Source: Mustelus asterias
Lineage: Eukaryota
Assembly: GCF_964213995.1 (NCBI RefSeq)
Contig: NC_135815.1
Location: 8,370,001-8,434,000 of the forward strand
Length of the DNA stretch: 64,000 nucleotides
Direction of reading: 5' to 3'
Each line of letters starts with the position of its first letter. Position 1 is the first letter of the stretch. The notes beneath the pieces are model-generated. The model was not told where the DNA came from, did not search any database, and saw only the letters and a list, made by a program, of their open reading frames with translations. Shown one piece after another: positions 3,241-56,990 of this stretch. Position numbers and translations under genes: made by a program.

Positions 3241-3816
3241 TATTCCATCACTCTCCTCGCCAACCTCTCACTTTCCGCCCTCCATTAACTTGAGTTCATC
3301 CAAATTTGAGCCCACGTTTTAACTCACACCAAGTTCCATTCAGACATCTTTCCTGTGCCTGCTGCCCCTCCAACACTGACACCCTTGGAAACAGCCCCTC
3401 CATTTTAAAATCCAAATCTCCCCGTGGCCTCTCCGCTCTCTCTATCTCTGCAATCTCCTCCAACCCCACAACCTTCTGAGATATTTGCACTCCTCCAATT
3501 CAGCGTTATGAGAATCCCTAACTCCCTTCGCTCCACCATTGGTGGCCGTGCATTCAGCTGCTTGGACCTTAGGCTCTGAAATTCCTTCTCAAAACCTCTC
3601 CACCTTTCTCTTCTCTTTAAGATGCTCCTCAAAACTTAACTTGACCAAGCTTTCTGCCGTCTGCCCTAATATCTCCTTGTGTGACTGGATGTTAATCTTT
3701 GTCTGACAGTGAACAGTTTTGTGGTGTTTTACTACGTTACGATGCTGTGTAAAGGTCACGTTGACAGCTCTCCAGTGCATTTCTCCGCAATATTGATATT
3801 TGCTTTTAATTGACAG

Positions 3817-6800
3817 GCTCTGGACAGATACAGGTCAGAGGTCACTCCGTTATCCTCCCTGGTCAGTATTCCACCGTAAGTCGTCTGGAAAGCAGCAAAA
3901 CCACCAGGGGGCGGTCAGTGACCAAGGACTCCTCCTGCCAAACTGAAGAGGTCAAGGTGGTGCCGCCATCAGTCCGGAGGATTCGGGCACAGAAAGGACA
4001 GGGCATCGCGGCCCAACTCTCCCACTCATCAAGCAACATGTTGACTGTTGGTGATGGGACCAGCACGCCGCGTGCCAGCGGGGACCTGCATTTCCACAGC
4101 CTGCCCCGACCCGGAGCCCGAGTCTCGCTGCACGAGTTAGACTGTGCCCACCACAGCCTGCGCAAGTCGGAGGAGTCTTTTGGCACGCTGCCCGGGAGGG
4201 TGGGCAAGCTGCGTGTGGACGGCTCGGCATCCCAGCTCCGGACAGCCCCCCTGACCAGACCAAAATCCCAGGAGATTACGGGCCGTCAGGCCACGGGGGA
4301 AGAATCCACTGGGATGGTGCGCGCCACTTCGCCCATCCAAATCATCGCCCACACCACGTTGTCCTCCAAGGCCGAGGTGGTGGCCATACGCACCTCACAG
4401 GGCCGGGGAGGGTGCCCGCTGCCGCCGGGCTCTGCCGTTGCCACGCCCCTCACCGCCGCTGCTCTGGGCAATGCCAACGGACTGCGAGAGGAACACCGCT
4501 CCTCCAGCGGCAACTGGAGTGGCAGCAGCGGCGGCAATGGCGGCAGCTCGGGTCGGCACTCCCCGACCTCTGACACTGTGCTGCCCCCGTCCCGCTGTGA
4601 CTCAGCTGTTTCCCTGGCGATGGGCTTGCGGGCCGATCTGGCAGAACCCCTGTACGCCCGGGACCGCAGTGGGACGACCAGCGATGCCGGCGGGTTCCGG
4701 CTGGAGGGCAGCAGCAGCGGCTCAACACCACATCCGGTGTGTGAGACGCCACCGAGCGCCCAGCAACCCCCGGCAGAGACACAGGCCATGAACTCGGACT
4801 CTCAGGCCCCCGTCTCTCAAACCTATCAGAATTCGGAGCACCCCCTCTCACCTCCCCCCACTGAGGTGGACTGGAACTCCCTGTACTCGGAGGTGCAGTT
4901 TCCACCCGCGGAGGTCACTGCCAGGTCACGGGGCGAGGGCAAAGGTCGGCGAGGCCTGGAAAGCCAAACTGAATACAGTGACCGGTCCCTGGGCCGCAGC
5001 ATATCCCTGAAAAAGACCAAGAAACCGCCCCTTCCCCCCGCCCGCACGGACTCCCTACGCAAGAAGCCCAAGGGTGCCCGGCCTGTGCTCAGTGAGTCGC
5101 TCATTGCTACCCTCCAGCGCTCGCTAGAGGTCAACCTCAAGGATCAAGATGGCCCCTCCGCTTCCCCCAGTGAGGGTCATGACCCCTGGGCCATGCGCCC
5201 CCGCAGCCAGAGCAACGCCAGTGCTGGCGAGGGCAGCAGCAACAGCAGCGGGCGTTCCACCGCTGCCAGTAATGCCTACTCCACCAGTGCAGCTACGCCA
5301 TCCCAGAGTGAGACCAGCAGCCTGCGCTCGGAGTACAGTGACCCCTGGGCCTATTATACTGAGGGGGTAGGCGGGAGAAGCCAGGACGAGGCAGCACGGG
5401 CGAGCGCCTGGGACTGCACACAGGACGAGTTGCCGAGGGCCTGCCCGCCACTCGTCACCAACATCTCGGCGAAACCAAAGAGCCCGTCCCCAGACAAGTC
5501 CCATGGGGTCACCTCACCCTCGAGCGGCTACTCCAGCCAGTGTAACACCCCCACCATGCTGAACCCAGCACCCGTCTTCTCTCGCCAATTATCGCCAGGG
5601 CCTACCAAGCCAAAGCCAAAGGTTCCCGAGCGGAAATCCTCACTGCTGTCCTCCGTGTCAGCCTCCTCCTCATCCGCATCCCTGTCCTCAAATGCCTCGG
5701 AATCCCGGCATCAAGTGAGAGAAAGCCGAGCGCTTCCTTCAAACGCACCTCCTGCATTATCCATGGGTCCTGATCTGAATCCTCCACTTCCTCCTCCACC
5801 ACCACCAGTGTGCACCTTAACCCCTCCTGCTGCCCCCTTGGCTATCCTGCCCCCTCCTCCTTTGCTGCCCCCTCCTGCCTCCCCCCGGCCCCCTCCTGCC
5901 TCCCCCCGGCCCCCTCCTGCCTACCCCCGGCCCCCTCCTGCCTCCCCCCGGCCCCCTCCTGCCTCCCCCCAACCCCCTCCTGCCTCCCCCCGGCCCCCTC
6001 CTGCCTCCCCCCGGCCCCCTCCTGCCTCCCCCCGGCCCCCTCCTGCCTCCCCCCTGCCCTCTCCTTCCATCGCTGCACCCACTTTACCCCCTCCTGCTCC
6101 CCCTCTACCCCCTCCTGCTCCCCCCTTGCCCCCTGCAGCCCCCTCTCTGGCTATGCCACCTCCTCCCGCTCCCCCGCTGGATCCGAAGATGCTGAACTGT
6201 GCGAAGTCCCCACACTCGCCCGCCCGGCCCAGCAGGAAGGAGCCCAAGGCCCCAGCTGAGCAGGCCGAGGCCTACAAACCAGCCCTGGGCCTGCCTCTCA
6301 TTACAGCCAGCGCTCTGCAGATGGTGCAGCTGAGGTCGGTGAGGAGGGGCGAGCGAGATGGCCCCCCGAGGCCGGTGAAGGAGCCGAGTCCCCGGCTGAA
6401 ATTGCGACCGGAGCAGCCAATGTCTCCACCGCCCCGGAAACCGGCTGTGCTACAACGGCCTTCCTCCCTTTGCCGATTTGCCAACCAACACGAGGCCAGA
6501 ACCGTCCCTGACGCCAGCCTAGCCCTAAGCTCGGAGGACAAGACCAGCAGCAGCACGGATTGGCCTGAAACATTGGCCCCCTGGAGCAGGCCTGAGATGG
6601 GAGCTGGGAATGAGCCGGAGCTCTGGATGCAGTCACCCAGCCCTGCCCCCTCCTCCACTCAGAGCAATGGCATTGAAGCCGGGCTTGATAAAAGGCAACA
6701 GCGAGAGAGGACACCCCCACCTGAAAACCCCAATGCCAAATCGGCCGGCAAAATGCCACCTCCCATCGCCAGGAAACCCAAACTGAGTCTACTTGTCCCG

Positions 6801-7137
6801 CCATCTCCATGGAGCCTCCCTCCTCAAGGGAAACGGGTGCCAGTCTCCTCAGAACCAGTGGCAGAAGACAGGACTGCGACGGCGCCGGTATCTGCTGAGA
6901 CCAATGGAGAGCGGCCCTCAGGCCAGAGTGTGGAAGAGACGGAATCTGACAACTCCCACACCGCCGGGAGGCTGGAGGACACGGCGCAGCACCAGGCCTG
7001 GGAAGTCCATGTGGAGAACCTGTTGGATCAAAGCATGAAAGATCCCGGTGTTCACGAAGAACTGGCAACAGACGCCTCAAACACTTCGGACAGAATGGAA
7101 GAGAGCAGTGCAATCATCTGCCAAGGTGACGGAATGG
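3817..7137 (+). CDS. NHSL1: NHS-like protein 1, large internal exon (3321 nt; upstream exons lie outside the window)
   Basis: Long ORF with NHSL1 motifs SSCQTEEVKVVPPSVRRIRAQKGQGIAAQL, RSISLKKTKKPPLPPARTDSLR, SPSSGYSSQ, PKVPERKSSL and LITASALQMVQLRSV. Acceptor ttgacag|GC; donor ATGG|gtaaga (phase 1). Confidence 0.92.
5868..6056 (+). repeat. Coding 21-bp tandem repeat, 9 copies (PPPASPR)
   Basis: Unit ccccctcctgcctccccccgg, in frame in NHSL1. Confidence 0.9.
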
Positions 7138-7394
7138 GTAAGATTTCCAGCCAGAATTGACTTTCCTCTTCTTCCTCCCCGTCCCCCGTCCCCCCGTTCC
7201 CCCCCCCCGTTCCCCCCCCCCGTTCCCCCCCCCGTTCCCCCCCCGTTCCCCCCTCCCGTTCCCCCCTCCCCTCCACATTGTCCCTTTGCTTGTCCTCACA
7301 CCTCTTCATCACTCAATCCACTTGTCCCTTCCTCTCCCAATTCCTTCCCATCTCCCCCTCTTTTTAAACCACTCCAGTCCGTTCAATTGCTTCA

Positions 7395-8790
7395 TAGGGG
7401 GTGTAACAGAGTGTAATAGAGTTTACAGGGGCTGTAACAGAATGTTCTAGAGTTTATAGGGGGTGTAATAGAGTTTACAGTGGGTATAACAGATGGTTAT
7501 GGAGCTTACAGGGAGTGAAACAAGTGATATAGAGTTTATAGAGAGTTTAATGGGGTTATAGAGTTTACAGGCGGTGTAAGAGTGTATAAGAGTTTACAGA
7601 GGGTGTAACAGAATGTGTAACAGTGTAAGAGTTTACAGAAACTAACAGAGTTTACAGGGGGTGTAACAGAGTGTAATAGTGTTTACAGGACTGTAACACA
7701 GTGTAATAGGGTTTACAGAATGTGTAACAGTGTAATAGAGTTTACAGAGTGTATAACAGAGGGTTATAGAGTTTACAGGGGGTGTAAGAGTGTATAAGAA
7801 TTTACAAAGGGTGTACCAGAGTGTAATAAGGTTTACAGGATGTGTAACAGTGTAATAGAGTTTACAGAGACTGTAACAGAGTTTACAGGGGGTGTAACAA
7901 AGTGTTATAGAGTTTACAGGGGTGTAACAGAGTGTAATAGAGTTTACAGGGACTGTAACACAGTGTAATAGGGTTTACAGGATGTGTAACAGTGTAATAG
8001 AGTTTACAGAGACTGTAACAGAGTTTACAGGGGGTGTAACAAAGTGTTATAGAGTTTACAGGGGTGTAACAGAGTGTAATAGAGTTTACAGGGACTGTAA
8101 CACAGTGTAATAGGGTTTACAGGATGTGTAACAGTGTAATAGAGTTTACAGAGTGTATAACAGAGGGTTATAGAGTTTACAGGGGTGTAACAGTGTAATA
8201 GAGTTTACAGAGTGTATAACAGAGGGTTATAGAGTTTACAGGGGTGTAACAGTGTAATAGAGTTTACAGAGTGTATAACAGAGGGTTATAGAGTTTACAG
8301 GGGTGTAACAGTGTAATAGAGTTTACAGAGTGTATAACAGAGGGTTATAGAGTTTACAGGGGTGTAACAGTGTAATAGAGTTTACAGAGTGTATAACAGA
8401 GGGTTATAGAGTTTACAGGGGTGTAACAGTGTAATAGAGTTTACAGAGTGTATAACAGAGGGTTATAGAGTTTACAGGATGTGTAACAGTGTAATAGAGT
8501 TTACAGAGTGTATAACAGAGGGTTATAGAGTTTACAGGGGTGTAACAGTGTAATAGAGTTTACAGAGTGTATAACAGAGGGTTATAGAGTTTACAGGGGT
8601 GTAACAGTGTAATAGAGTTTACAGAGTGTATAACAGAGGGTTATAGAGTTTACAGGATGTGTAACAGTGTAATAGAGTTTACAGAGTGTATAACAGAGGG
8701 TTATAGAGTTTACAGGGGTGTAACAGTGTAATAGAGTTTACAGAGTGTATAACAGAGGGTTATAGAGTTTACAGGAGTGTAACAGGATGT
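7395..8790. repeat. Intronic minisatellite, 59-bp higher-order unit
   Basis: Core tagagtttacag; near-perfect 59-bp period from about 8130 to 8775, degenerate to the left. Confidence 0.9.
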
Positions 8791-8870
8791 TGCAGGTTGA
8801 TAACTATCTGGTTTTTACGATACTTCCTCCACCTTTCAGTGACTGGAGTTAAAATTCTGTCCTCTGGCAG

Positions 8871-8988
8871 GTGATGTGTTTGAACCCAGTTCCCCCGTCC
8901 TTGGCAGCAGTTTCGGATGGAATATTGAAGAGCCAAGCACTCCCAGCAGAGCCAGGACAACTGAGGACTTGTTTGCAGCGATTCACAG
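8871..8988 (+). CDS. NHSL1: NHSL1 penultimate coding exon (118 nt; absent from the ORF track)
   Basis: ctctggcag|GT GAT...CAC AG|gtaggg. Encodes (G)DVFEPSSPVLGSSFGWNIEEPSTPSRARTTEDLFAAIH(R); RTTEDLFAAIHR is the NHS-family signature. Phase 1 in, phase 2 out, matching both neighbours. Confidence 0.93.
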
Positions 8989-10109
8989 GTAGGGAGCGGA
9001 GTGAGAGGTTTTTACATTGATTCATGACATGGATCAACCTGAGAGTGACGGCTGAGATATTGTATTGTGCATTTCCTGAACTGGCCGATGACTGGTATGT
9101 CACCTTTCCTGGTCTCAGGCTCTGAGGGTCACTGGGGCATATAGAGGGCAGAGGTGTTAGTTTAATGTGGCTGATGACTTCCTTGGAACTTACTGGATTG
9201 CCCCTGGATTGAGATGTGCAAGAGGTTATTAAAGGGTTAAATACAGCCTGGAAATTCCTCTGAGGAATAATCAGCCCCATGCCTCAGCTTGGGAACTCTC
9301 ATGCTGAGGAACAGCTGAACAACTGCCCCTGACTGTAACTTCTCTCTCTCCCCTAAAGCAGCATATACACCAACATGGACTAATCAGAGTGGCCTGTTTC
9401 CGTGCTCTCAATCTCTAAGGGCACTCCAATACTCAGCTCGAGTCATAGAGGTTTACAGCATGGAAACAGGCCCTTTGACCCAACTTGTCCATGCCGTCCT
9501 TTTTTTAAAAACCCCTAAGCTAGTCCCAATTGCCCGCATTTGGCCCATCTCCCTCTATACCCATCTTAGAAATATAAAACAATATATCACAGACTTTGAT
9601 CGAGTTATCCAATTAGTCTTGCTCCCCCACTCTCCCCAAACCCCTGCAATTTTTTCCTCCGATATATGATTGATATTAATGTTAGTATCCTTCAGTCATG
9701 ATCATTTATAGATTTTGGTTCTTTTTATTCTTTCATGGGATGTGTGCGTCGCTGGTTGGGCCAGTATTTATTGCCCATCCCTAATTGCCTTGGAACTGAG
9801 TGGCTGGCTAGGCCATTTCAGAGGGCAGTCGCTGTGGCTCTGGAGTCATATGTAGGCCAGACAGGGTAAGGACGGCTGATTTCCTTCCCTAAAGGACAAT
9901 AGTGAACCAGATGGGTTTTTACAATAATCCATGAATGTTTTTTAAAATCTTTCTCGGCTTGTGGGTGTTGCTGGCTAGGCCAGCTGAAGTTGTCACGGTT
10001 ACCATTGCTGAGACTAGCTTTCAATGCCAGATTTATATGTATGTTTGTATATATACCCATCTCCCTGCCCCTCCCTCTCCGTCTCCAAGGGTGGGATCAC
10101 AAATTCTTG

Positions 10110-10534
10110 CTTTTCATTATCCATCTATCGTCCTTTCTACCCTATCTCTCTATCTTCACTTTTCATTATCCATCTATCGCTCTCTCTACTCCATCTCTCT
10201 ATCTTCACTTTTCATTATCCATCTATCGCTCTCTCTACTCCATCTCTCTATCTTCACTTTTCATTATCCATCTATCGCTCTCTCTACTCCATCTCTCTAT
10301 CTTCACTTTTCATTATCCATCTATCGCTCTCTCTACTCCATCTCTCTATCTTCACTTTTCATTATCCATCTATCGCTCTCTCTACTCCATCTCTCTATCT
10401 TCACTTTTCATTATCCATCTATCGCTCTCTCTACTCCATCTCTCTATCTTCACTTTTCATTATCCATCTATCGCTCTCTCTACTCCATCTCTCTATCTTC
10501 ACTTTTCATTATCCATCTATCGCTCTCTCTACTC
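10110..10534. repeat. 49-bp pyrimidine-rich minisatellite (continues at 11547-11625)
   Basis: ttttcattatccatctatcgctctctctactccatctctctatcttcac, about 8.5 copies. Confidence 0.9.
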
Positions 10535-10536
10535 TC

Positions 10537-11547
10537 TACCGCAGGGTTCAGTGTTGGGGCCACAGCTGTTCTCTTTATATATTAACGATCTAGATGACGG
10601 GACTGGGAGCATTCTGGCCAAGTTTGCCGATGATACAAAGATAGGTGGAGGGGCAGGTAGTATTGAGGAGGTGGGGAGGCTGCAGAAAGATTTAGACAGT
10701 TTAGGAGAGTGGTCCAAGAAGTGGCTGATGAAATTCAACGTGGGCAAGTGCGAGGTCGTGCACTTTGGAAAAAAGAATAGAGGCATGGACTATTTTCTAA
10801 ACGGTGACAAAATTCATAATGCTAAAGTGCAAAGGGACTTGGGAGTCCTAGTCCAGGATTCTCTAAAGGTAAACTTGCAGGTTGAGTCCGTAATTAAGAA
10901 AGCAAATGTAATGTTGTCATTTATCTCAAGAGGCTTGGAATACAAAAGCAGGGATGTACTTCTGAGGCTTTATAAAGCACTGGTTAGGCCCCATTTGGAG
11001 TACTGTGAGCAATTTTGGGCCCCACACCTCAGGAAGGACATACTGGCACTGGAGCGGGTCCAGCGGAGATTCACACGGATGATCCCAGGAATGGTAGGCC
11101 TGACATACGATGAACGTCTGAGGATCGTGGGATTATATTCATTGGAGTTTAGGAGGTTGAGGGGAGATCTGATAGAAACTTACAAGATAATGAACGGCTT
11201 AGATAGGATGGACGTAGGGAAGTTGTTTCCATTAACAGGGGAGACTAGGACGCGGGGGCACAGCCTTAGAATAAAAGGGAGTCACTTTAGAACAGAGATG
11301 AGGAGAAATTTCTTCAGCCAGAGAGTGGTGGGTCTGTGGAATTCATTGCCACAGAGGGCTGTGGAGGCCGAGACGTTGAGCGTCTTCAAGACAGAAATTG
11401 ATAAATTCTTGATTTCTCGAGGAATTAAGGGCTATGGGGAGAGAGCGGGTAAATGGAGTTGAAATCAACCATGATTGAATGGTGGAGTGGACTCGATGGG
11501 CCGAATGGCCTTACTTCCGCTCCTCTGTCTTATGGTCTTATGGTCTT
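10537..11547 (+). mobile_element. Young 5'-truncated CR1 LINE inserted in a minisatellite
   Basis: Open frame PQGSVLGP...KFADD...RPHLEYC to a stop at 11462; (TCTTATGG)n tail. Confidence 0.9.
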
Positions 11548-11704
11548 ACTCCATCTCTCTATCCTCGCTTTTCATTATCCATCTCTCACTCTCTCTACTC
11601 CATCTCTCTATCCTCGCTTTTCATTAGCCCTCTGTCTCTCTTCCTCTATTTCTTTTTATGTAACGATTAGGTGTAAATTTTACAACCGTGTTTCCCATCT
11701 TTAG

Positions 11705-12479
11705 GTCCAAAAGGAGGGTTCTGGGACGGAAGGATTCTGAGGATGAGCACAGTAAGACCGTGTCCCCTTCTCCTCCCGTCACCCCCACGGGAGCCGTGTC
11801 CAGTCCAGGCAGCTTCAAGCAGGTTGGCTCCATCCAGAGGAACCTGCGGAAATCCAGCACCAGCAGTGACAGCTTCAAGGCCCTGCTGTTGAAGAAGGGC
11901 AGCAGAGTGGAGACGGGCTGCCGCATGTCAGCCGCTGAGATGCTCAGGAGCACCGACCCCAGGCACCAGCACGCCGAACCCTCGCAGGCCGAGACAGCCC
12001 GGACCAACGGCTGGAGTCCGACCGAGAGCCGCTCGCCGGGACACCGGGGCAGGAACCCTCGCGAGGAGTGGGCCTCGCAGGAAGGGCCGATGCCCCGGGG
12101 CACGGGGCTGGCAGGTGTCCGGCACGGGCGCTCACGGACCCCCCCCTCAGCCGCCAGCAGCCGATACAGCGCGCGGCACCTGCACCTCCACCGGCTCCAC
12201 AGCAGCCCCATGACCGTTATCTGTGAGGGGGAGGCGGAGAACTCTGAGGCCGCCGAGAGTCCGGGTGACGAGGGGCGTCGGCACAGCGAGGGTGACATTG
12301 TCAGCAGCAATGGCCTGGGTGAGACCTGGGGGGAGCAGGAGCCCAAAGATGGCAGCATGTCAGCCCCTGCCTCACGGAATCTTCCGGACTCAGTGTGCGG
12401 AACAACAGACGTTTATCTGGCCCAGAACGGCTCCGCCAGTTTGAGTGAAGAAGGTGCGAATCAGGATTGGGTCTCGTGA
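11705..12479 (+). CDS. NHSL1: NHSL1 last coding exon to the TGA stop
   Basis: catctttag|G TCC AAA. Encodes SKRRVLGRKDS, SPSPPVTPTG, KQVGSIQR, FKALLLKKGSR, MSAAEML, EEWA, RSRTPPSAASSRYS and SSPMTVI, typical of the NHSL1 C-terminus. Confidence 0.93.
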
Positions 12480-16286: not shown

Positions 16287-16420
16287 CATGATGTGGAGAT
16301 GCAGGCTTTGGACTGGGGTAAACACAGTAAGAAGTCTCACAACATCAGGTTAAAGTCCAACAGGTTTATTTGGAATCACGAGCTTTCGGAGCAATGTTCA
16401 CTCACCTGATGAAGGAGCAT
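16287..16420. mobile_element. Truncated fold-back element, family A, reverse orientation
   Basis: catgatgtggagatgc...aggttaaagtccaacaggtttatttgg...agctttcggagc...ctgatgaaggagc. Confidence 0.55.
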
Positions 16421-16472
16421 CAGGGACCCAGGTTCGATTCCCAGCTTGGGTCACTGTGTGGAGTTTGCACAT

Positions 16473-21095: not shown

Positions 21096-21286
21096 CTACA
21101 CAACGGAAAAGCCATTTTAGTCAGGTGACCCGACAACAACAACTTACATTTGTATAGTACACGGCAAGACCCTCTCAAGCCGCATCAGAAGAACATCAAT
21201 AAAACACTGAGACACGCGAGGAGATATTCGGGCAGGTCAGATGATTTGGTCAAAGTGCCAGGCTTTAGGGAGGCAAGAGAGGGAAA

Positions 21287-21485
21287 ATGCTGGAAAATCT
21301 CAGCAGGTCTGGCAGCATCTGTAAGGAGAGAAAAGAGCTGACGTTTCGAGTCCAAAGGGTCATCTGGACTCGAAACGTCAGCTCTTTTCTCTCCTTACAG
21401 ATGCTGCCAGACCTGCTGAGATTTTCCAGCATTTTACCTTTTGGTTCCAGATGCCAGCATCCGCAGTAATTTGCTTTCATATAGG
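21287..21485. mobile_element. Fold-back Penelope-like element, family B
   Basis: Perfect 71-bp inverted repeat (21284-21354 and 21365-21435) plus extension; 11-bp TSD AGAGAGGGAAA. Confidence 0.75.
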
Positions 21486-21749
21486 AGAGAGGGAAAGACT
21501 CAGGGAGAAAACTCCATACTTCAGGACCCAGAGAGTTGAAGACACGGCCACCGATAATGCAGCGATTAAAATCAGGATGCCGGGATTGCAGGAGCGCAGA
21601 GATCTCGGAGGGTCGGAGGGCGAGAGGAGGTTACACAGATAGGGAGGGATGGGGCCCGGGAGGGGTTTGAACACAAGCAACTCCAGAACAAAAATGCCTT
21701 TGGTCCCCTGAAGTCGTCAGCCAGTAATTTCTTAAGTATAAGTTTATGT

Positions 21750-29930: not shown

Positions 29931-30381
29931 CGCCTCACAGCGCCAGGGACCCGGGTTCGATTCCCGGCTTGGGTCGCTGTCTGTGTGGAGTTTGCACGTT
30001 CACCCCCGTGTCTGCGTGGGTTTCCTCCGGGTGCTCCGGTTTCCTCCCACAGTCCAAAGATGTGCGGGTTAGGTGGGTGGTCATGCTAAATTGCCCCTTA
30101 GTGGGACCCTAAAACCTCACACAGGATCCACCATCCAACACAGATTCCACATGCTCGAGTAGTGAACCTGCCTCTGAACCAGAAGCTCCGGGTTCAAGTC
30201 CCACCCCAGCATTCGATGGCCAAGGAAGATATGTTTATAACGCGGCCAAACAGGGGGGACTAGCTGGGTAAATGCAAGGGGTGATGGCGATAGGGCCTGG
30301 GTAGAATTGTGGTCGGTGCAGACTCGATGGGCCCAATGTCCTCCTTCTGCACTGTAGGGATTCTATGGATTCTATGATTCC
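29931..30381 (+). mobile_element. V-SINE, tail A, with a 149-bp foreign insert
   Basis: Interrupted at 30106-30254. Confidence 0.75.
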
Positions 30382-30489
30382 AGTAAGAGTTTTAACAACA
30401 CCAGGTTAAAGTCCTGGACTTTAACCTGGTGTTGTTAAAACTCTTACTGTGTTCACCCCAGTCCAACACCAGCATCTCCACATCATAAC
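30382..30489. mobile_element. Internally deleted fold-back element, family A
   Basis: Same arms as 36763 but shortened to about 33 bp; flanks ttctatgattcc / ttctatgaatcc. Confidence 0.65.
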
Positions 30490-30708
30490 TTCTATGAATC
30501 CCCCAGCCCTAGACTCACCAAACAGGGGAAATAGTTTTTTCCCGATCTACTTTCCTTGTCCCTCTTAATATATTGAAGATTTTGATTAATTCGATTAGCC
30601 TCCTCTATTCCAGGGAACATGATTAGTTTGTGTAACACAGCTATCGCTGAGTTTCTTCAGCAACTTAATACGCAAAGTACAAATGTTCGGTCGAGGGATT
30701 GGCAGTAC

Positions 30709-35631: not shown

Positions 35632-36135
35632 CATAGAGTTCTACAGTGCAGGAGGAGGCCATTCGGCCCATTGAGTCTGCACCAACCACAATCCCACCCA
35701 GGCCCTAACCCCATAACCCCATGCATTTACCCTGCCAACCCCACTGACACTAAGGGGCAATTTAGCACGGCCAATCCACCAGACCTGCATGTCTTTGGAC
35801 TGTGGGAGGAAATCGGAGCACCCGGGGGAAACCCATGCAGACACGGGGAGAACGTGCAAACTTCACACAGACTGTCAACCAAGCCGGGAATTGAACCCGG
35901 GACCCTGGTGCTGCATGTTCTCCTGGCTTTCCTCCGGGTGCTCCGGTTTCCTCCCACAGTCCAAAGATGTGTAGGTTAGTGGATTAGCCATGCTAAATGA
36001 ACCCTCGTGTCAGAGGGGTTAGCAGGGTAAATGCATGGGGTTATGGGGATAGGGCCTGGCTGGGATTGTGGTCGGTGCAGACGCGATGGGCCGAGTGGCC
36101 TCTTCCTGCACTGTAGGGATTCTATGATCCTATGA
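35632..36135. mobile_element. Two 5'-truncated V-SINEs fused head-to-head
   Basis: - copy 35632-35911 and + copy 35912-36135, both tails pointing outward. Confidence 0.8.
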
Positions 36136-36386: not shown

Positions 36387-36819
36387 CTGAGGAGAGGAAC
36401 GAGACACACAGATCAGCAGAGGCTTTGGGGAAACATCGTAAAGAAATGTCCTGACACAAAGGCAAGTCCGGAACTTTCTCTCTCTCATTAACCAGCTGCG
36501 GTGGGCGGGGGCGGCGGGGGGGGGGGGGGGGGGGGGGGGGGGAGGCAATTGAAACATTTCTGAACCAAACTCAACAAATTCTTTTTACAAATCGGGGCGA
36601 GGATATTTCAGGATGCGAAACCATGGCGGGTGACGGCAGATCAGCCATGATCTCCCTGACTGACGACAGAGTGGGCTTGAGGGGCTGAATGGCGTCTTGC
36701 TGTTGCTATGCCCCAGTCGCAACACCTCACTCACCGTCCTTAAACTATTGGTAATTTAATCCAGTAAGAGTTTTAACAACACCAGGTTAAAGTCCAACAG
36801 GTTTATTTGGTAGCAAATA

Positions 36820-36856
36820 CCATTAGCTTTCGGAGCGCTGCTCCTTCGTCAGATGG
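36820..36856 (-). ncRNA. Putative minimal type I hammerhead ribozyme
   Basis: CCAU-CUGACGA-A-GGAGC-AGC-GCUCC-GAAA-GC-UA-AUGG: stem I CCAU/AUGG, stem II GGAGC/GCUCC, palindromic AGCU in place of stem III. Confidence 0.55.
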
Positions 36857-36881
36857 AGTGGCAATCTGCTCCATTTCCACT

Positions 36882-36918
36882 CCATCTGACGAAGGAGCAG
36901 TGCTCTGAAAGCTAATTG
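36882..36918 (+). ncRNA. Second, slightly degenerate hammerhead motif on the opposite arm
   Basis: CCAU-CUGACGA-A-GGAGC-AGU-GCUCU-GAAA-GC-UA-AUUG; one G-U pair in stem II and one mismatch in stem I. Confidence 0.4.
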
Positions 36919-37619
36919 TATTTGCTACCAAATAAACCTGTTGGACTTTAACCTGGTGTTGTTAAAACTCTTACTGTGTTTTCCCCAGTCCAACGCCGGC
37001 ATCTCCATATCATGGTAATTTAATCCCCAGGGTAATGATGTCCACACTTACTGCCTGACTGGACTCACATCTCAGTTCCCGGGCGGGGTCTGTTCGAGGA
37101 CAGCCATTAGTGAGACTGTCTACAAATCCACCCCCCCGCCCCCAATTTACGATGACGAGGGACTTCCTTCTAAACTCCCAGAGACAGGGTCCTGGGAAAG
37201 AAACAACTCGCATTTAAACAGCGCCTGTCTCATCCACAGAGTGTGTCAAGGCAGATCACAACCAATGAATAATGTCTGAAGTGCATTCGCTGTTGCAATT
37301 TAGGCAATTCTGTACACAGCAATATCCCACAAACAGCAAATAAAAAGATGACCAGTTTGTTTTCCACAGTGTGCGTCAGGGGATAAATGTTGGTCAGGAC
37401 ACCAGGGGAATGCAACACTCCTCCTTCTATTACTGGCTAGTCCACGTCAAGACAGAGGCACAAATTCATGTGTTTAACCTCACATCTGAGTGGGAAGCAG
37501 TCATCGAGTTAGAGTGAGGGTAGCAACAGCCCAAAGTGTCAGGGTCTAAGTGAACAGAACAAACTAAAGTTCGGCGTTGACATTGGGGATGGGAAGTTGT
37601 GAGAGGGAGAGGGAGAGAT

Positions 37620-38293
37620 ACCCCGAGAGTAGAAAGAATGTTCCCAATGGTGGGGGAGTCCGAAACTAGGGGTCATAGTTTGAGGATAAGGACTAAACCT
37701 TTTGGAACTGAGGTGAGGAGAAATTTCTTCACCCAGAAGGCGGTGAATGTGTGAAAATCACTACCACAGAATGTAGCTGAGGCCAAAACGTTGTGTGATT
37801 TCTAGAAGAAATTAGATATAGCTCTTGGGGCAAAAGGGATCAAGGGATATGGGAGGTGGGGACAAATGGTGGGATCAGGGTCGTAGAGTCATAGAGGCTT
37901 ACAGCATGGAAACTGGCCCTTCGGCCCAACTTGTCTGTGTGGAGTTTGCACATTCTCCCCGTGTCTGCATGGGTTTCCTCTGGGTGCTCCGGTTTCCTCC
38001 CACACTCCAAAGGTGTGCGGGTTGGGTTGATTGGCCATGCTAAATTGACCCTTAGTGTCAGGGGATTAATAGGGTAAATATATGGGGTGACAGGAATAGG
38101 GCCTGGGTGGGATTCTGGTCAGTGCAGACTTGATGGGTCGAATGGCCTCCTTCTGCACTATAGGGATTCTATGATTGTCCATGAAGCCCAGCATTGAATT
38201 TGATGATCAGCGATGGTCAAAATGAATGGCGGAGCAGGCTCGAAGGGCTGAATGGCCTCCTCCTGCTCCTAGCTTCTATGCTTCTATGTTTCT
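37620..38293 (+). mobile_element. CR1 3' fragment hosting a nested LINE tail and SINE
   Basis: CR1 C-terminal coding remnant at 37620-37880; resumes around 38190 to a (CTTCTATG)n tail. Confidence 0.65.
37930..38173 (+). mobile_element. 5'-truncated V-SINE, tail A
   Basis: TSD/microhomology TTGTC; sits inside a - strand CR1 tail. Confidence 0.75.
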
Positions 38294-38510
38294 ATTGGCC
38301 ACCTCTGGAGGCTCCAGTGTGGGATCTCCCGTTTGAAGAATCCTTTTCCCCGGCTGTCCTTTACCCTGTGAGAGAGCGGTCAGAGGTTTTGCTCCATGTG
38401 AGACAGCCTGGATATTCCCGGTGAAATCATCATGGAATCTGGGGAGTTGTTAGTTCAATCCGACCCAAACCCATAGCGTCAGTTTAGGGATGTCTGGGAA
38501 TAGTCTTTAC

Positions 38511-43782: not shown

Positions 43783-44485
43783 CTTTCTGCACCCTCCAAA
43801 CATTAAAATCCATTGGAGCAGGAGGAGGCCATTCAGCCTCTCGAGCCCGTTCTGTCATTCAGACAGATCTTCACTCCATCTACCCGCCTCCACTCAGCCT
43901 TAGCCAATAGAAATCCAGCAATCTCAGTTTGGACATGTGCAGTTGACCTCACTGTGACCCTGCCAGAGGCAATCACCATGTGCTTAGAGTCAGACAGTAC
44001 AGAAGAGGCCCTTTGGCCCATCGAGTCTGCACTAACATCAAATCTACACCAATCCCATTTTCCAGCGCTTGGCCCATAGCCTTGAATGTTTTGACATTTC
44101 AAGTGCTCTTCCAGGTACTTTTTAACGGTTCTGAGGTTTCCCGCCTCTCCCACCCTCCCAGGCAGTGCGTTCCGGACTCCCACCGCCCTCTGGATGAAAA
44201 GCTTTTATTTCAAATTCCCTTTAAACTTCCTGCCCCTCACTTTAAAATTATGTCCCTCGTTGACCCTTAGTTGACCCTTCAACTAAGGGAAACAGCTGCC
44301 TCCTATCCCGCATGATGTGGGGATCCCCATCACAGGTTAAACACCAACAGGGACAGGTCATGGTCGATGCAGACTTGATGGGCTGAATGGCCACCTTCTG
44401 CACTGTAGGATTCTCTGATTCTATGACTAAGTGCCCATTAATTGGCCATTTACGGCCTCCAGTAGGCTGTGTGACTAGAACTGAC

Positions 44486-48208: not shown

Positions 48209-48580
48209 GGGTTTTTTAATCTACCGAATTTCAGTTCACCTCGAAGATCAGAAGGAAGGCTCCAGCCGAAGACCTTGCCCCAAACTGGAGCCTTCAACAT
48301 GTTACATTCCTTGGGGGCCAAACGGGGGGGCGAGGGCACGGTGAGAAGACTTTCCCCCTCCATTGGTGGGGGTGGGGGGAGGGGATTGCCTCTGTGTTGT
48401 TGCTGTGGATCTCCGTGTCCTATCACCATCTTCCACAGGCTGACGCCAGGAGGCTGGCAGTAGCTGGTACGTAAGGGAGAGGAACCCACTGGCACCAAGG
48501 CCCATGTACCGTTTACGTTTAGTGAGCAGGGAGGAGTGGCCAATGGCAGTCCCCATTGGGGTCAGGGGGAGGGAATTCCC

Positions 48581-48769
48581 AAAGATAAAGGCAAAATACT
48601 GCGGATGCTGGAACCTGAAACACAAGCAGAAAATGCTGGAAAATCTCAGCGGGTCTGACAGCATCTGTGGGGAGGGAACAGAGATATTTGTCTCTATTCT
48701 CTGGCTCTATTCTCTCCCCACAGATCCTGTCAGACCTGCTGAGATTTTCCAGCATCTTCTGTTTCTGTT
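48581..48769. mobile_element. Fold-back element, family B
   Basis: Same arms (gaaaatgctggaaaatctcagc...); 13-bp TSD GGAGGGAATTCCC at 48568-48580 and 48770-48782. Confidence 0.7.
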
Positions 48770-48999
48770 GGAGGGAATTCCCTGTTTGGTGCTTAATGGA
48801 TTGTGGGCCCCATTTTCCAAATTTACAACATTTCTCCCACTCTCCCATTGGGATGTAGAGGAAATTCCGCCTGCTCCCTAAAGTCCAGCTTCATCTAATT
48901 GTTACTTTCTGATCTGGCTTATCTTCCCCACGACTCTTTTTGCGAATCATAATCCTACACCTTGGGCACTGCCTGTTCACCAGGGTTTCCCAATGGATC

Positions 49000-52506: not shown

Positions 52507-52763
52507 ATTGGATCGTAAAGTGAAAACTAGAAGTGGGCAGCAAAGGAGTCTGGGAAGGGTTTTTATTTTAACTTTAAAAGTCAGTTACCTGGGAGGTTCC
52601 CCCTCAGTAGTAGTTTTTTTTTCTCTCGGGCCCCTAGCCCTATAAATTGGTGCAGAGGAGATACCCGATCCTCTACACTGGTAGAGGATCCCACCCTTCC
52701 ATCCTCCTCTAACCTAATTATAAGTGTGGGGAAGTTTTTTGTTTTCTTTTTTTCTTGCTGGTA

Positions 52764-53693
52764 ATGGCTTCAGGGATGGCAGTTCAGGCAGTATGCTGCA
52801 TCTCCTGTGGGATGTATGTGGTGAGGAAATCCAGTAGTGTTTCAGGAGATTTTAGTTGTAAGAAGTGCATTAGATTGCAGCTTCTGGAGGAGCGTGTAAA
52901 GGAGCTGGAGGGGGAGGTAGAGGAACTCCGCATAATTCGGGAGGCGGAGGTGGAAGTTGATAGGAGTTATAGAGAAATAGTAACTCCTAGAAATGAGGCT
53001 TGGGTCAATGCCAGGAGGAGGGGTAAGAAGCAATCGGGAAGACAATCCCCTGGGGCGGTTCCCCTCCATAATAGGTTTTCGGTGCTGGAGGCTACAGTTG
53101 AGGAGGAATCAACTGAGCATAGAGAGCAGATCTCTGGGGGTGAGCCGAGTGAGAAAGCTCAGGTGGTTAGGGGCTGTAAAAGACTGGGCCTTGTGATTGG
53201 GGACTCCACAATTAAGGGGACAGATAGGAGGGTCGGAACTAAAGGTAGGGACTCAGGGTTGGTGTGTTGCCTACCAGGGGCTGGGGTCCGGGATGTGTCT
53301 GACAGGGTATTCAGGACTCTTAGGGGGGAGGGAGATAAACCACAAGTTATTGTACATGTGGGGACACACGACATAGGGAGGATAGGGGAAGGGGATATTA
53401 GGCAGGGATTTATGGAGTTGGGGTGGAAACTAAAGGCCAAGACTGACAGAGTGGTTATCTCTGGACTCTTGCCTGTACCACGGGATAGTTTAGAGAGGAA
53501 TAGGGAGAGGGAAGGTTTGAATTCATGGCTGAGGGGATGGTGCAGGAGGGAGGGGTTCAGGTACTTAAGCAATTGGGGCTCGTACTGGGGAAGGTGTGAC
53601 CTCTATGAGAAGGATGGTCTACACCTTAATCAGAAGGGGACCAATATCCTGGGGGGTAAATTTGCTAAGGCCATGCAGGGAGGTTTAAACTGA
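52764..53693 (+). CDS. CR1 ORF1p: zinc finger, leucine zipper and SGNH esterase-like domain
   Basis: CISC...CKKC, heptad LLEERVKELEGEVEEL, and VIGDS / VHVGTHD / DGLH blocks. First ATG at 52764. Confidence 0.88.
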   Translation: MASGMAVQAVCCISCGMYVVRKSSSVSGDFSCKKCIRLQLLEERVKELEGEVEELRIIREAEVEVDRSYREIVTPRNEAWVNARRRGKKQSGRQSPGAVPLHNRFSVLEATVEEESTEHREQISGGEPSEKAQVVRGCKRLGLVIGDSTIKGTDRRVGTKGRDSGLVCCLPGAGVRDVSDRVFRTLRGEGDKPQVIVHVGTHDIGRIGEGDIRQGFMELGWKLKAKTDRVVISGLLPVPRDSLERNREREGLNSWLRGWCRREGFRYLSNWGSYWGRCDLYEKDGLHLNQKGTNILGGKFAKAMQGGLN

Positions 53694-53743
53694 TTCGGGG
53701 GGGGGGAGGGATCCTGAGTAGTGGGGCTGAAAGTGAGGGATGC

Positions 53744-56563
53744 ATGGATGGGGACTGCAATGCACGGCATTGCAGAGGTGGGGTGGAGCAGGGTTTGAAA
53801 TGTGTATACTTCAATGCCAGGAGTATTCGCAATAAAGTGGGTGAACTTGCAGCGTGGATCAGTACCTGGGACTTCGATGTTGTGGCTATTTCAGAGACAT
53901 GGATAGAGCAGGGGCAGGAATGGATGCTGCAGGTCCCGGGGTTCAAATGTTTTAGTCGAAGTAGGGAAGGAGGTAGAAGAGGGGGAGGGGTAGCATTATT
54001 GGTCAGAGATTGTATCACAGTGTCAGAGAGGAGGTTTGATGAGGACTTATCTGTTGAGGTAGTATGGGCGGAGATTAGAAATAGGAGAGGAGAGGTCACC
54101 CTGTTGGGAGTCTTTTATAGACCTCCTAAAAGTTCTAGAGAGGTTGAGGAAAGGATTGCGGAGTCAATCCTGCTTAGGAGTGAAAGTAATAGGGCAATTG
54201 TTATGGGGGATTTTAACTTGACTAATATTGACTGGAATTGTTATAGCTCTAGCTCGTTAGAGGGGTCAGTTTTTGTTCAAAGCGTGCAGGAAGGTTTTTT
54301 GACTCAGTATGTAGACAGGCCAACTAGAGGTGAGGCTATATTGGATCTGGTGCTGGGAAATGAGCCAGACCAGGTGCTAGACTTGGAAGTTGGTGTGCAT
54401 TTTGGTGATAGTGACCACAATTCGGTTACGTTCACCTTAGTGATGGAAAGGGATAGGCATGAACCTCGGGCCAGTGGTTTTAGCTGGGGGAAGGGTAATT
54501 ATGAGGCTATTAGGAGAGAATTAGGAAACATAGGTTGGACTAGGAGATTACAGGGACTGGGAACGTCTGACATGTGGAGTTTTTTCAAGGAGCAGCTACT
54601 GCGAGTCTGTGATAGGTATGTCCCTGTCAGGCAAGGAGGAATTGGTAGGGCTAGGGAACCGTGGTGCACCAAAAAAGTTTCTTTGTTGGTTAAAAAGAAA
54701 AAGGAGGCTTATGTTCGGATGAGACGTGAGCACTCGGGTAGTGCACTAGAAAGCTTTAGATTGGCTAAGAGGGAGTTGAAGAGCGAGCTTAGAAGGGCTA
54801 AAAGGGGACATGAGAAGACTTTGGCGGATAGGGTTAAAGAGAATCCTAAGGCGTTCTATAGGTATGTCAAGAACAGAAGGTTGGTTAGGGCAAGTTTAGG
54901 GCCAGTTATAGATGGCAGAGGGAAGTTATGTGTGGAACCGGAGGAGATTGGTGAAGCATTGAACCAATATTTCTCTTCGGTGTTCACGCAAGGGGACATG
55001 AATATAGCTGAGGAGGACACTGGGTTGCAAGGGAGTAGAATAGACAGTATTACAGTTGATAAGGAGGATGTGCAGGATATTCTGGAGGGTCTGAAAATAG
55101 ATAAATCCCCTGGTCCGGATGGGATTTATCCAAGGATTCTCTGGGAGGCAAGAGAAGTGATTGCAGCGCCTCTGGCTCTGATCTTCAGGTCGTCGTTGGC
55201 CTCTGGTATAGTACCAGAAGATTGGAGGTTAGCGAATGTTGTCCCATTGTTTAAGAAGGGGAACAGAGACTTCCCCGGGAATTATAGACCGGTGAGTCTC
55301 ACTTCTGTTGTCGGCAAGATGTTGGAAAAAATTATAAGGGATAGGATTTATAGTTATTTGGAGAGTAATGAATTGATAGGTGATAGTCAGCATGGTTTTG
55401 TGGCAGGTAGGTCGTGCCTTACTAACCTTATTGAGTTTTTTGAGAAAGTGACCAAGGAGGTGGATGGGGGCAAGGCAGTGGACGTGATATATATGGATTT
55501 TAGTAAGGCGTTTGATAAGGTTCACCATGGTAGGCTTCTGCAGAAAATGCAGATGTATGGGATTGGGGGTGATCTAGGAAATTGGATCAGGAATTGGCTA
55601 GCGGATAGGAAACAGAGGGTGGTGGTTGATAGTAAATATTCATCATGGAGTGCGGTTACAAGTGGTGTACCTCAGGGATCTGTTTTGGGGCCACTGCTGT
55701 TTGTAATATTTATTAATGATCTGGATGAGGGTATAGTTGGGTGGATTAGCAAATTTGCTGATGACACCAAAGTCGGTGGTGTGGTAGACAGTGAGGAAGG
55801 GTGTCGTAGTCTGCAGGAAGACTTAGACAGGTTGCAAAGTTGGGCCGAGAGGTGGCGGATGGAGTTTAATGCGGAGAAGTGTGAGGTAATTCACTTTGGT
55901 AGGAATAACAGTTGTGTTGAGTATAGGGCTAACGGGAGGACTTTGAATAGTGTGGAGGAGCAGAGGGATCTAGGTGTATGTGTGCATAGATCCCTGAAAG
56001 TTGGGAATCAAGTAGATAAGGTTGTTAAGAAGGCATATGGTGTCTTGGCGTTTATTGGTAGGGGGATTGAATTTAGGAGTCGTAGCGTTATGTTGCAACT
56101 GTACACAACTCTGGTGCGGCCGCACTTGGAGTACTGTGTGCAGTTCTGGTCCCCACATTACAGGAAGGATGTGGAGGCTTTGGAGAGGGTGCAGAGGAGG
56201 TTTACCAGGATGTTGCCTGGTATGGAGGGGAGATCCTATGAGGAGAGGCTGAGGGATTTGGGATTGTTTTCGCTGGAAAGGCGGCGGCTAAGAGGGGATC
56301 TTATTGAAACATATAAGATGATTAGAGGTTTAGATAGGGTGGATAGTGATAGCCTTTTTCCTCTGATGGAGAAATCCAGCACGAGGGGGCATGGCTTTAA
56401 ATTGAGGGGGGGTAGTTATAGAACCGATGTCAGGGGTAGGTTCTTTACCCAGAGGGTGGTGAGGGATTGGAATGCCCTGCCAGCATCAGTAGTAAATGCG
56501 CCTAGTTTGGGGGCGTTTAAGAGATCCGTAGATAGGTTCATGGACGAAAAGAAATTGGTTTAG
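53744..56563 (+). CDS. CR1 ORF2p: AP endonuclease plus reverse transcriptase
   Basis: YFNARSIRNK, ISETW, YRPP, MGDFN, ILDLV, SDHN (APE); NYRPVSLTS, MDFSKAFD, GVPQGSVLGP, KFADD (RT). The frame is open from 53669. Confidence 0.95.
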   Translation: MDGDCNARHCRGGVEQGLKCVYFNARSIRNKVGELAAWISTWDFDVVAISETWIEQGQEWMLQVPGFKCFSRSREGGRRGGGVALLVRDCITVSERRFDEDLSVEVVWAEIRNRRGEVTLLGVFYRPPKSSREVEERIAESILLRSESNRAIVMGDFNLTNIDWNCYSSSSLEGSVFVQSVQEGFLTQYVDRPTRGEAILDLVLGNEPDQVLDLEVGVHFGDSDHNSVTFTLVMERDRHEPRASGFSWGKGNYEAIRRELGNIGWTRRLQGLGTSDMWSFFKEQLLRVCDRYVPVRQGGIGRAREPWCTKKVSLLVKKKKEAYVRMRREHSGSALESFRLAKRELKSELRRAKRGHEKTLADRVKENPKAFYRYVKNRRLVRASLGPVIDGRGKLCVEPEEIGEALNQYFSSVFTQGDMNIAEEDTGLQGSRIDSITVDKEDVQDILEGLKIDKSPGPDGIYPRILWEAREVIAAPLALIFRSSLASGIVPEDWRLANVVPLFKKGNRDFPGNYRPVSLTSVVGKMLEKIIRDRIYSYLESNELIGDSQHGFVAGRSCLTNLIEFFEKVTKEVDGGKAVDVIYMDFSKAFDKVHHGRLLQKMQMYGIGGDLGNWIRNWLADRKQRVVVDSKYSSWSAVTSGVPQGSVLGPLLFVIFINDLDEGIVGWISKFADDTKVGGVVDSEEGCRSLQEDLDRLQSWAERWRMEFNAEKCEVIHFGRNNSCVEYRANGRTLNSVEEQRDLGVCVHRSLKVGNQVDKVVKKAYGVLAFIGRGIEFRSRSVMLQLYTTLVRPHLEYCVQFWSPHYRKDVEALERVQRRFTRMLPGMEGRSYEERLRDLGLFSLERRRLRGDLIETYKMIRGLDRVDSDSLFPLMEKSSTRGHGFKLRGGSYRTDVRGRFFTQRVVRDWNALPASVVNAPSLGAFKRSVDRFMDEKKLV

Positions 56564-56895: not shown

Positions 56896-56990
56896 ATAAA
56901 AACAAAATACTGCGGGTGCTGGAAATCTGAAATAAAAACAGAAAATGCTGGAAAAACTCAGCAGGTCTGGCAGCATCTGTGGAGAGAGAA
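56896..56990. mobile_element. Single arm of fold-back family B
   Basis: aaatactgcgggtgctggaaatctgaaataaaaacagaaaatgctggaaaaactcagcaggtctggcagcatctgtggagagag. Confidence 0.6.

Follow-up and report, generated by a model that had tools for sequence, protein, structure and literature searches.

The locus described here poses a simple question: how did a 250-bp fold-back with hammerhead-like motifs come to lie in the intron of a shark gene, and does its ribozyme act there? The fold-back (element A) occupies positions 36749 to 37026 of the 64-kb stretch of DNA that we analyzed (the window). We conclude, with a probability of roughly 0.86, that element A is a single 5'-truncated insertion of an endonuclease-bearing (EN+) Penelope-like retrotransposon (PLE), in which the hammerhead is a passenger. 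The host gene is ARFGEF3/BIG3. Its last large coding exon upstream in the window is 96% identical to the Scyliorhinus torazame protein, followed by two other sharks (91% and 90%) and bony vertebrates (at most 76%), and the S. torazame protein maps onto 20 exons on the minus strand of the window. Element A sits in the ARFGEF3 intron at 36387 to 38510 (minus strand; acceptor end read by eye), with some 360 nt between it and the acceptor downstream.

An earlier annotation made from the letters alone, the sequence-only reading, had described a fold-back with two arms, a loop, an unpaired tail, and a TSD, and our measurements confirmed this architecture (99 to 100 bp, 15 nt, 36 to 37 nt, and 14/14 identical positions, respectively). 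Element A begins with the left TSD (36749 to 36762; 71% AT), whose final C may represent microhomology. This is followed by an inverted, 5'-truncated PLE end (pLTR) at 36763 to 36861 (minus strand), which lacks the tail and ends at what we interpret as the inner RT start site; by a 15-nt head-to-head junction, the loop (36862 to 36876); and by a direct, 5'-truncated PLE end at 36877 to 36975 (plus strand), which pairs with the inverted arm. The tail (36976 to 37012, plus strand) is attached to the direct arm only, has an end point common to two further copies, B and C, and abuts the right TSD (37013 to 37026). Both TSDs read TGGTAATTTAATCC, and an in-register 14-mer repeat at the same spacing was found at 0 of 20,000 random window positions. 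The arms measure 99 bp (100 bp if C36762/G36976 is counted) and contain only three internal mismatches (36821/36917, 36832/36906, and 36837/36901). Two of the three fall on the arm's 3 CpG sites, as expected for neutral decay. Folding of the whole element gave -178.3 kcal/mol (z = -26.4), a value matched by none of 200 shuffles.

When the direct arm's 42-codon open frame was used as a protein query, 2 records were retrieved in one search and 7 in another, 8 of them distinct (P0001, P0002, and P0125 to P0130), which are spurious ORFs without a Pfam family that contain the repeat. These outside records helped to define the junctions of element A. Record P0126 aligns from 36871, so the 3' part of the loop probably represents upstream sequence belonging to the direct arm. 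Two of the eight run to the same TGG that opens the right TSD and continue into unrelated flanks; these 3 nt therefore probably matched the template, as template-target microhomology. Depending on how the TGG and the 1-nt C at the left junction are assigned, the TSD is 10 to 14 bp long. The tail ends at an ATG (37012 to 37014), as does copy C, and in the parent element the next tandem ORF may start with this ATG. A protein search with the frame leading to it returned no records.

Long inverted repeats and a TSD would also fit a MITE or another long-TIR DNA-transposon derivative, and Rfam miRNA models do score the hairpin (MIR841, 86 bits). Yet all 8 Rfam matches lie below the gathering score (the best at 86 against 200) and reflect a generic hairpin shape, and the element contains a hammerhead consensus. 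For a TIR transposon, the repeats should abut a fixed-length TSD at both ends; here the tail parts the right arm from its TSD by 36 to 37 nt, and arm and TSD lengths vary among copies. We rejected the transposon on these grounds, in agreement with the earlier view that the arms are not DNA-transposon TIRs, and consider a MITE, a similar derivative, or an miRNA precursor very improbable. For annotation, such PLE inserts call for caution, as they resemble MITEs or miRNA hairpins.

The hammerhead motifs were evaluated with a minimal-hammerhead descriptor written from the consensus of PMC4209133. Without a stem I requirement, the descriptor found two motifs in 64 kb, which are the two arms, compared with a total of 6 in 500 dinucleotide shuffles; requiring at least 3 stem I pairs left one match (minus strand, core starting at 36852), compared with a total of 1 in 500 shuffles. 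The surviving motif (36820 to 36856, minus strand) comprises a 4-bp stem I, CUGACGA, an extra A, a 5-bp stem II, GAAA, GC, and UA, with predicted cleavage after 36824. It also has features listed in PMC4209133 that lie beyond the descriptor, namely, an extra base after A9, the G10.1-C11.1 pair, and a palindrome at 15.2-16.2. Judged by conformity of sequence and fold, it is a genuine minimal type I hammerhead. The assignment to this class with a palindromic AGCU, made in the sequence-only reading, is thus borne out, as is its location on the ARFGEF3 sense strand, since the gene's exons and the motif are both on the minus strand.

The same reading had placed a motif on each arm, and this holds for the minus arm only. 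The plus-arm motif (36882 to 36918) is degraded by CpG transitions at 36901 and 36906 and a transversion at 36917, such that G10.1-C11.1 is now G-U and stem I is broken after 2 bp. Protein records that translate the repeat (P0001, P0126, P0127, and P0129) show the minus-arm state, which makes the plus arm the derived one. Comparison with copy C revealed that two of four stem I pairs are changed on both sides (U-A versus C-G and C-G versus U-A; the C halves are on opposite strands), while all five stem II pairs are identical and show no covariation in these two copies. Positions N7 and N17 differ between copies A and C. On this two-copy sequence comparison, the double changes in stem I suggest that the fold was under selection in the parent family.

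A covariance-model search, which the earlier annotation had proposed as a check, gave no match to any Rfam hammerhead family at E values up to 10, and the window contains no Rfam match at the gathering score. Rfam hammerhead models expect a stem III, so the missing match weighs little. Stem II and its loop (36832 to 36844, minus strand) hold a second palindrome, AGCGCU, and because of it the most stable predicted dimer of the motif is a noncleaving, domain-swapped form.

Could the intact ribozyme cleave ARFGEF3 pre-mRNA or be retained by the host as an intronic ribozyme? The antisense-strand motif is damaged by all three arm mismatches, none of which affects the sense-strand motif, and the isolated fragments 36820 to 36856 (the 37-nt motif) and 36810 to 36861 fold with stems I and II. 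However, three changes on a single arm have a chance of 1 in 4, and two of the three are at CpG. Moreover, in the pre-mRNA the antisense arm is transcribed first. Co-transcriptional folding had been suggested to rescue the ribozyme, but our predictions contradict this: both strands carry their motif in the downstream arm, the arm made second, and the motif should thus be trapped as soon as it emerges. In folds of growing prefixes, which describe equilibrium rather than kinetics, pairing of the core to the earlier arm was 0.96 to 0.999 on the minus strand (11 lengths) and 0.71 to 0.999 on the plus strand (7 lengths), and at every length that allowed stem II its probability was 0 (six decimals). 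Imposing stems I and II on the full element carries a penalty of 51.3 kcal/mol.

Nor does the motif seem suited to act alone. As a monomer it has no stem III, and nearest-neighbor energies, which omit tertiary contacts, rank the active dimer (-19.1 kcal/mol) below both two monomers (-21.8) and the inactive swapped dimer (-29.1) in stability. The fragment put forward earlier for a cleavage assay (36810 to 36870, minus strand) is predicted to misfold. In the experiments described in PMC4209133, single minimal motifs gave no cleavage and dimers gave low cleavage; the anole hammerhead in PMC11167929 cleaved only with protein, and its cleavage was dispensable for insertion. Cleavage of the pre-mRNA or a host function for the ribozyme is accordingly a very slim prospect. 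Folding models indicate that the ribozyme in element A is most likely inert in its context.

Element A shows every structural feature of EN+ PLE insertions that we looked for. These include an inverted 5'-truncated copy beside a direct copy, a one-sided tail of 30 to 40 bp, and a hammerhead in the pLTR; between elements A and B, TSD length and 5' truncation vary while the 3' end is fixed. Descriptions of PLE inserts in PMC3846280 include direct and inverted pLTRs, an optional 31-bp tail, and a 9- to 10-bp TSD; PMC8557442 gives a tail of 30 to 40 bp that is often at one end only, and both PMC8557442 and PMC8969392 treat inverted and direct pLTRs, tail, and TSD as general PLE features. The PLE origin first proposed from the letters is supported by footprint and motif, which are the basis of the assignment, rather than by a protein.

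Related copies in the window bear on how the fold-back arises. Copy B (30370 to 30501, plus strand) has perfect 34-bp arms, a 1-nt loop, a 12-bp TSD (11/12), and no ribozyme, and its inner end and tail end are those of element A. Copy C (16287 to 16419, minus strand) belongs to a sister subfamily; its direct part starts in stem II, its inverted piece (16399 to 16419) holds the 5' half of the ribozyme, and no TSD was detected. All three copies share the same 3' end point and are identical at 62 to 66 of 71 bases pairwise. In the complete fold-backs A and B, the inverted arm starts at the same inner point, with arm lengths of 99 versus 34 bp. A second, unrelated PLE-like family yielded fold-backs with a tail at 21276 to 21495 (plus strand; TSD 10/10) and 48568 to 48782 (minus strand; TSD 13/13) and, by sequence comparison within the window, a copy without inversion at 56896 to 56990 (minus strand). 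Its tails are about 35 to 50 nt long, its TSDs are purine-rich rather than AT-rich (50% and 38% AT), and the copy at 21276 to 21495 retains a 3' portion of a minimal hammerhead whose palindrome is ACGU, as read by eye. The window thus contains four complete fold-backs from two families, with TSDs of 14, 12, 10, and 13 bp. Outside the window, two of the eight protein records (P0128 and P0130) represent whole fold-backs, an antisense followed by a sense arm, with other junctions. P0128 carries the tail on both arms, so the one-sided tail is not a strict rule.

Two minor observations concern these copies. At the junction with the inverted arm, the TSDs of both A and B finish with (A/T)TCC (36758 to 36762 in A; 30377 to 30381 and 30497 to 30501 in B), GGATT on the other strand; this may reflect a target preference or priming by microhomology, in two cases only. 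The inverted piece of copy C runs directly into a SINE-like repeat (16399 to 16470), and a microhomology deletion possibly removed the rest of the fold-back and its TSD. A weak match to the element at 44333 to 44351 was set aside as probable chance.

The sequence-only reading had gone further and proposed a separate non-autonomous, ribozyme-bearing family. In such a scheme, the 250-bp fold-back would either replicate as a unit that a PLE mobilizes in trans or be derived by truncation from a non-autonomous, ORF-less parent. Precedents exist in the non-LTR retrozymes (PMC7229834; bioRxiv 10.64898/2026.07.22.740005) and in Chlamys (PMC8557442), pLTRs by themselves can direct integration in trans according to PMC3846280, and no partner ORF turned up in the window or in protein searches. 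However, the junction of element A recurs in no second copy, whether among the three copies in the sampled 64 kb or in the two outside fold-backs; the 250-bp structure does not recur as a whole; the 100-bp hairpin is predicted to hide both motifs; and copy B shows that the layout can arise without any ribozyme. Retrozymes, moreover, are head-to-tail tandems, and no tandem array overlaps element A. Taken together, the variable junctions, the ribozyme-less copy B, and the same layout in a second family argue that the fold-back is a product of each integration and not an inherited unit. We therefore regard a replicating or ORF-less unit as improbable and the separate family as unsupported.

The partner search suggested earlier, for an RT or GIY-YIG ORF tied to the element end, found none among window ORFs, protein records, or prokaryotic contigs. 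In the window, we scanned 56 ORFs with Pfam (12 chosen as host exons and 44 others from the 99 of at least 110 amino acids, many of the remaining ones lying in simple or interspersed repeats) and found only ARFGEF3 and NHS-like host domains and one LINE ORF1/ORF2 pair; the sole RT was the APE-type ORF2 of this LINE. A six-frame regular-expression search for PLE motifs across the window gave nothing coherent, and arm-motif scans of a prokaryotic contig collection gave 0 matches, as expected for prokaryotes. Literature searches, judged by title and opening lines of the abstract, gave no account of shark PLE hammerheads, and the element A family may be an undescribed shark family; Repbase, Dfam, or preprint supplements may hold it.

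How would a truncated PLE insertion of this shape form? We propose that the protein of a source element of the Penelope/Poseidon or Neptune type nicked both strands of an AT-rich target, 10 to 14 nt apart, and that RT on element RNA was primed by each freed 3' end, from the outer start site in one case and from a point 36 to 37 nt further upstream in the other. Both cDNAs would have aborted after about 100 to 140 nt, just past the pLTR hammerhead, and would then have been joined head to head. Gap filling would generate the TSD, and the offset between the two RT start sites would leave the one-sided tail. In the parent element the hammerhead would work, probably when dimerized or assisted by protein; in element A, it would be locked in the 100-bp duplex, with one copy decaying. 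We infer the two-strand target-primed route in the shark family, the joining of cDNAs, an autonomous partner, and the lack of cleavage in vivo.

The proposed steps have biochemical counterparts. In vitro, the anole PLE protein described in PMC11167929 cuts both strands and extends each of them, favors AT-rich DNA, and initiates RT at two sites flanking the tail. The ends of element A fit this finding: its fixed inner and outer ends, separated by 36 to 37 nt, sit on the opposite strands of a single staggered cut and make it a clean natural example. For inversions of this kind, PMC3846280 favors self-priming on an antisense template; the data from element A fit both self-priming and two-nick priming without separating them. 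The anole element PAc has a conserved stem-loop at its RT start sites; in element A and its relatives such a structure was unsupported, with z scores of -0.2 to -1.8 and folds that were inconsistent among copies.

Compared with described EN+ PLEs (PAc of Anolis, PMC11167929; Pen2a_Av of Adineta, PMC3846280), element A shares the inverted and direct pLTRs, the one-sided 30- to 40-nt tail, a TSD of about 9 to 14 bp, an AT-rich target, 5' truncation, and a hammerhead upstream of the RT start sites. From the predicted cleavage site, the distances to the two ends of element A are 61 and 98 nt; in PAc, the cut is at +26 and RT starts at +111 to +118 (PMC11167929). Unlike these elements, element A retains no ORF, and the truncation of both arms falls immediately beyond the ribozyme. 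The PAc ORF starts at stem II (PMC11167929), whereas in element A the tail region has a single ATG, located right at its end (37012); the position of the ORF relative to the ribozyme thus probably differs.

With the metazoan PLE hammerheads of PMC4209133, element A shares CUGANGA plus an extra base, G10.1-C11.1, GAAA, a palindromic 15.2-16.2, a short stem I, and the lack of stem III. It has A at position 17, as do several motifs in that study. A turtle PLE-type entry in Fig. S3 of PMC4209133 contains GAAAGCU as well, followed downstream by a similar CCAAAUAAA, and there was no shark entry among the rows of that figure examined. Cervera and De la Pena 2014 (PMC4209133) had already reported opposite-strand motif pairs 100 to 700 bp apart as truncated PLEs; in element A, the motifs are about 35 nt apart and base-paired together. 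Like the non-LTR retrozymes (PMC7229834; bioRxiv 10.64898/2026.07.22.740005), which the preprint reports from one chondrichthyan sampled, element A is noncoding, on the 150- to 450-bp scale, related to PLE pLTRs, and equipped with a type I hammerhead and a long TSD. However, those sources describe same-orientation, head-to-tail tandems with mostly canonical ribozymes that give rise to circular RNA, whereas element A is head to head and single and cannot release a unit. It was not tandem, its ribozymes were not in the same orientation, and in this small sample the copies all differed in their junctions; we rejected a retrozyme identity.

As a locus, element A is a dead insertion, and its footprint has been described for PLEs since at least 2013. 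If head-to-head ends are routine in PLE integration and dense in sharks, host transcription through them would make long dsRNA against the pLTR/ribozyme region. That such RNA serves as a source of endogenous siRNA or as an ADAR substrate and silences the parent family is a speculative and rather unlikely extension. Under the same premise, thousands of fold-back junctions would provide an in vivo readout of two-nick, two-start-site integration.

The surroundings of element A are themselves rich in repeats, with about 40% of the 64-kb window repeated within the window itself. An NHS-like gene (3810 to 12479, plus strand; Pfam), presumably NHSL1 by synteny, lies tail to tail with ARFGEF3. A near-intact LINE (52713 to 56563, plus strand), which we take to be of the CR1/L2 type, sits in an ARFGEF3 intron antisense to the gene; by Pfam, it encodes an ORF1 with a GDSL/esterase domain and a 964-amino-acid ORF2 with APE endonuclease and RT domains. 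In the ARFGEF3 intron that follows the one holding element A, two SINE-like copies (35641 to 36116) are inverted relative to each other and 89% identical over 122 nt, and they are a likely source of dsRNA.
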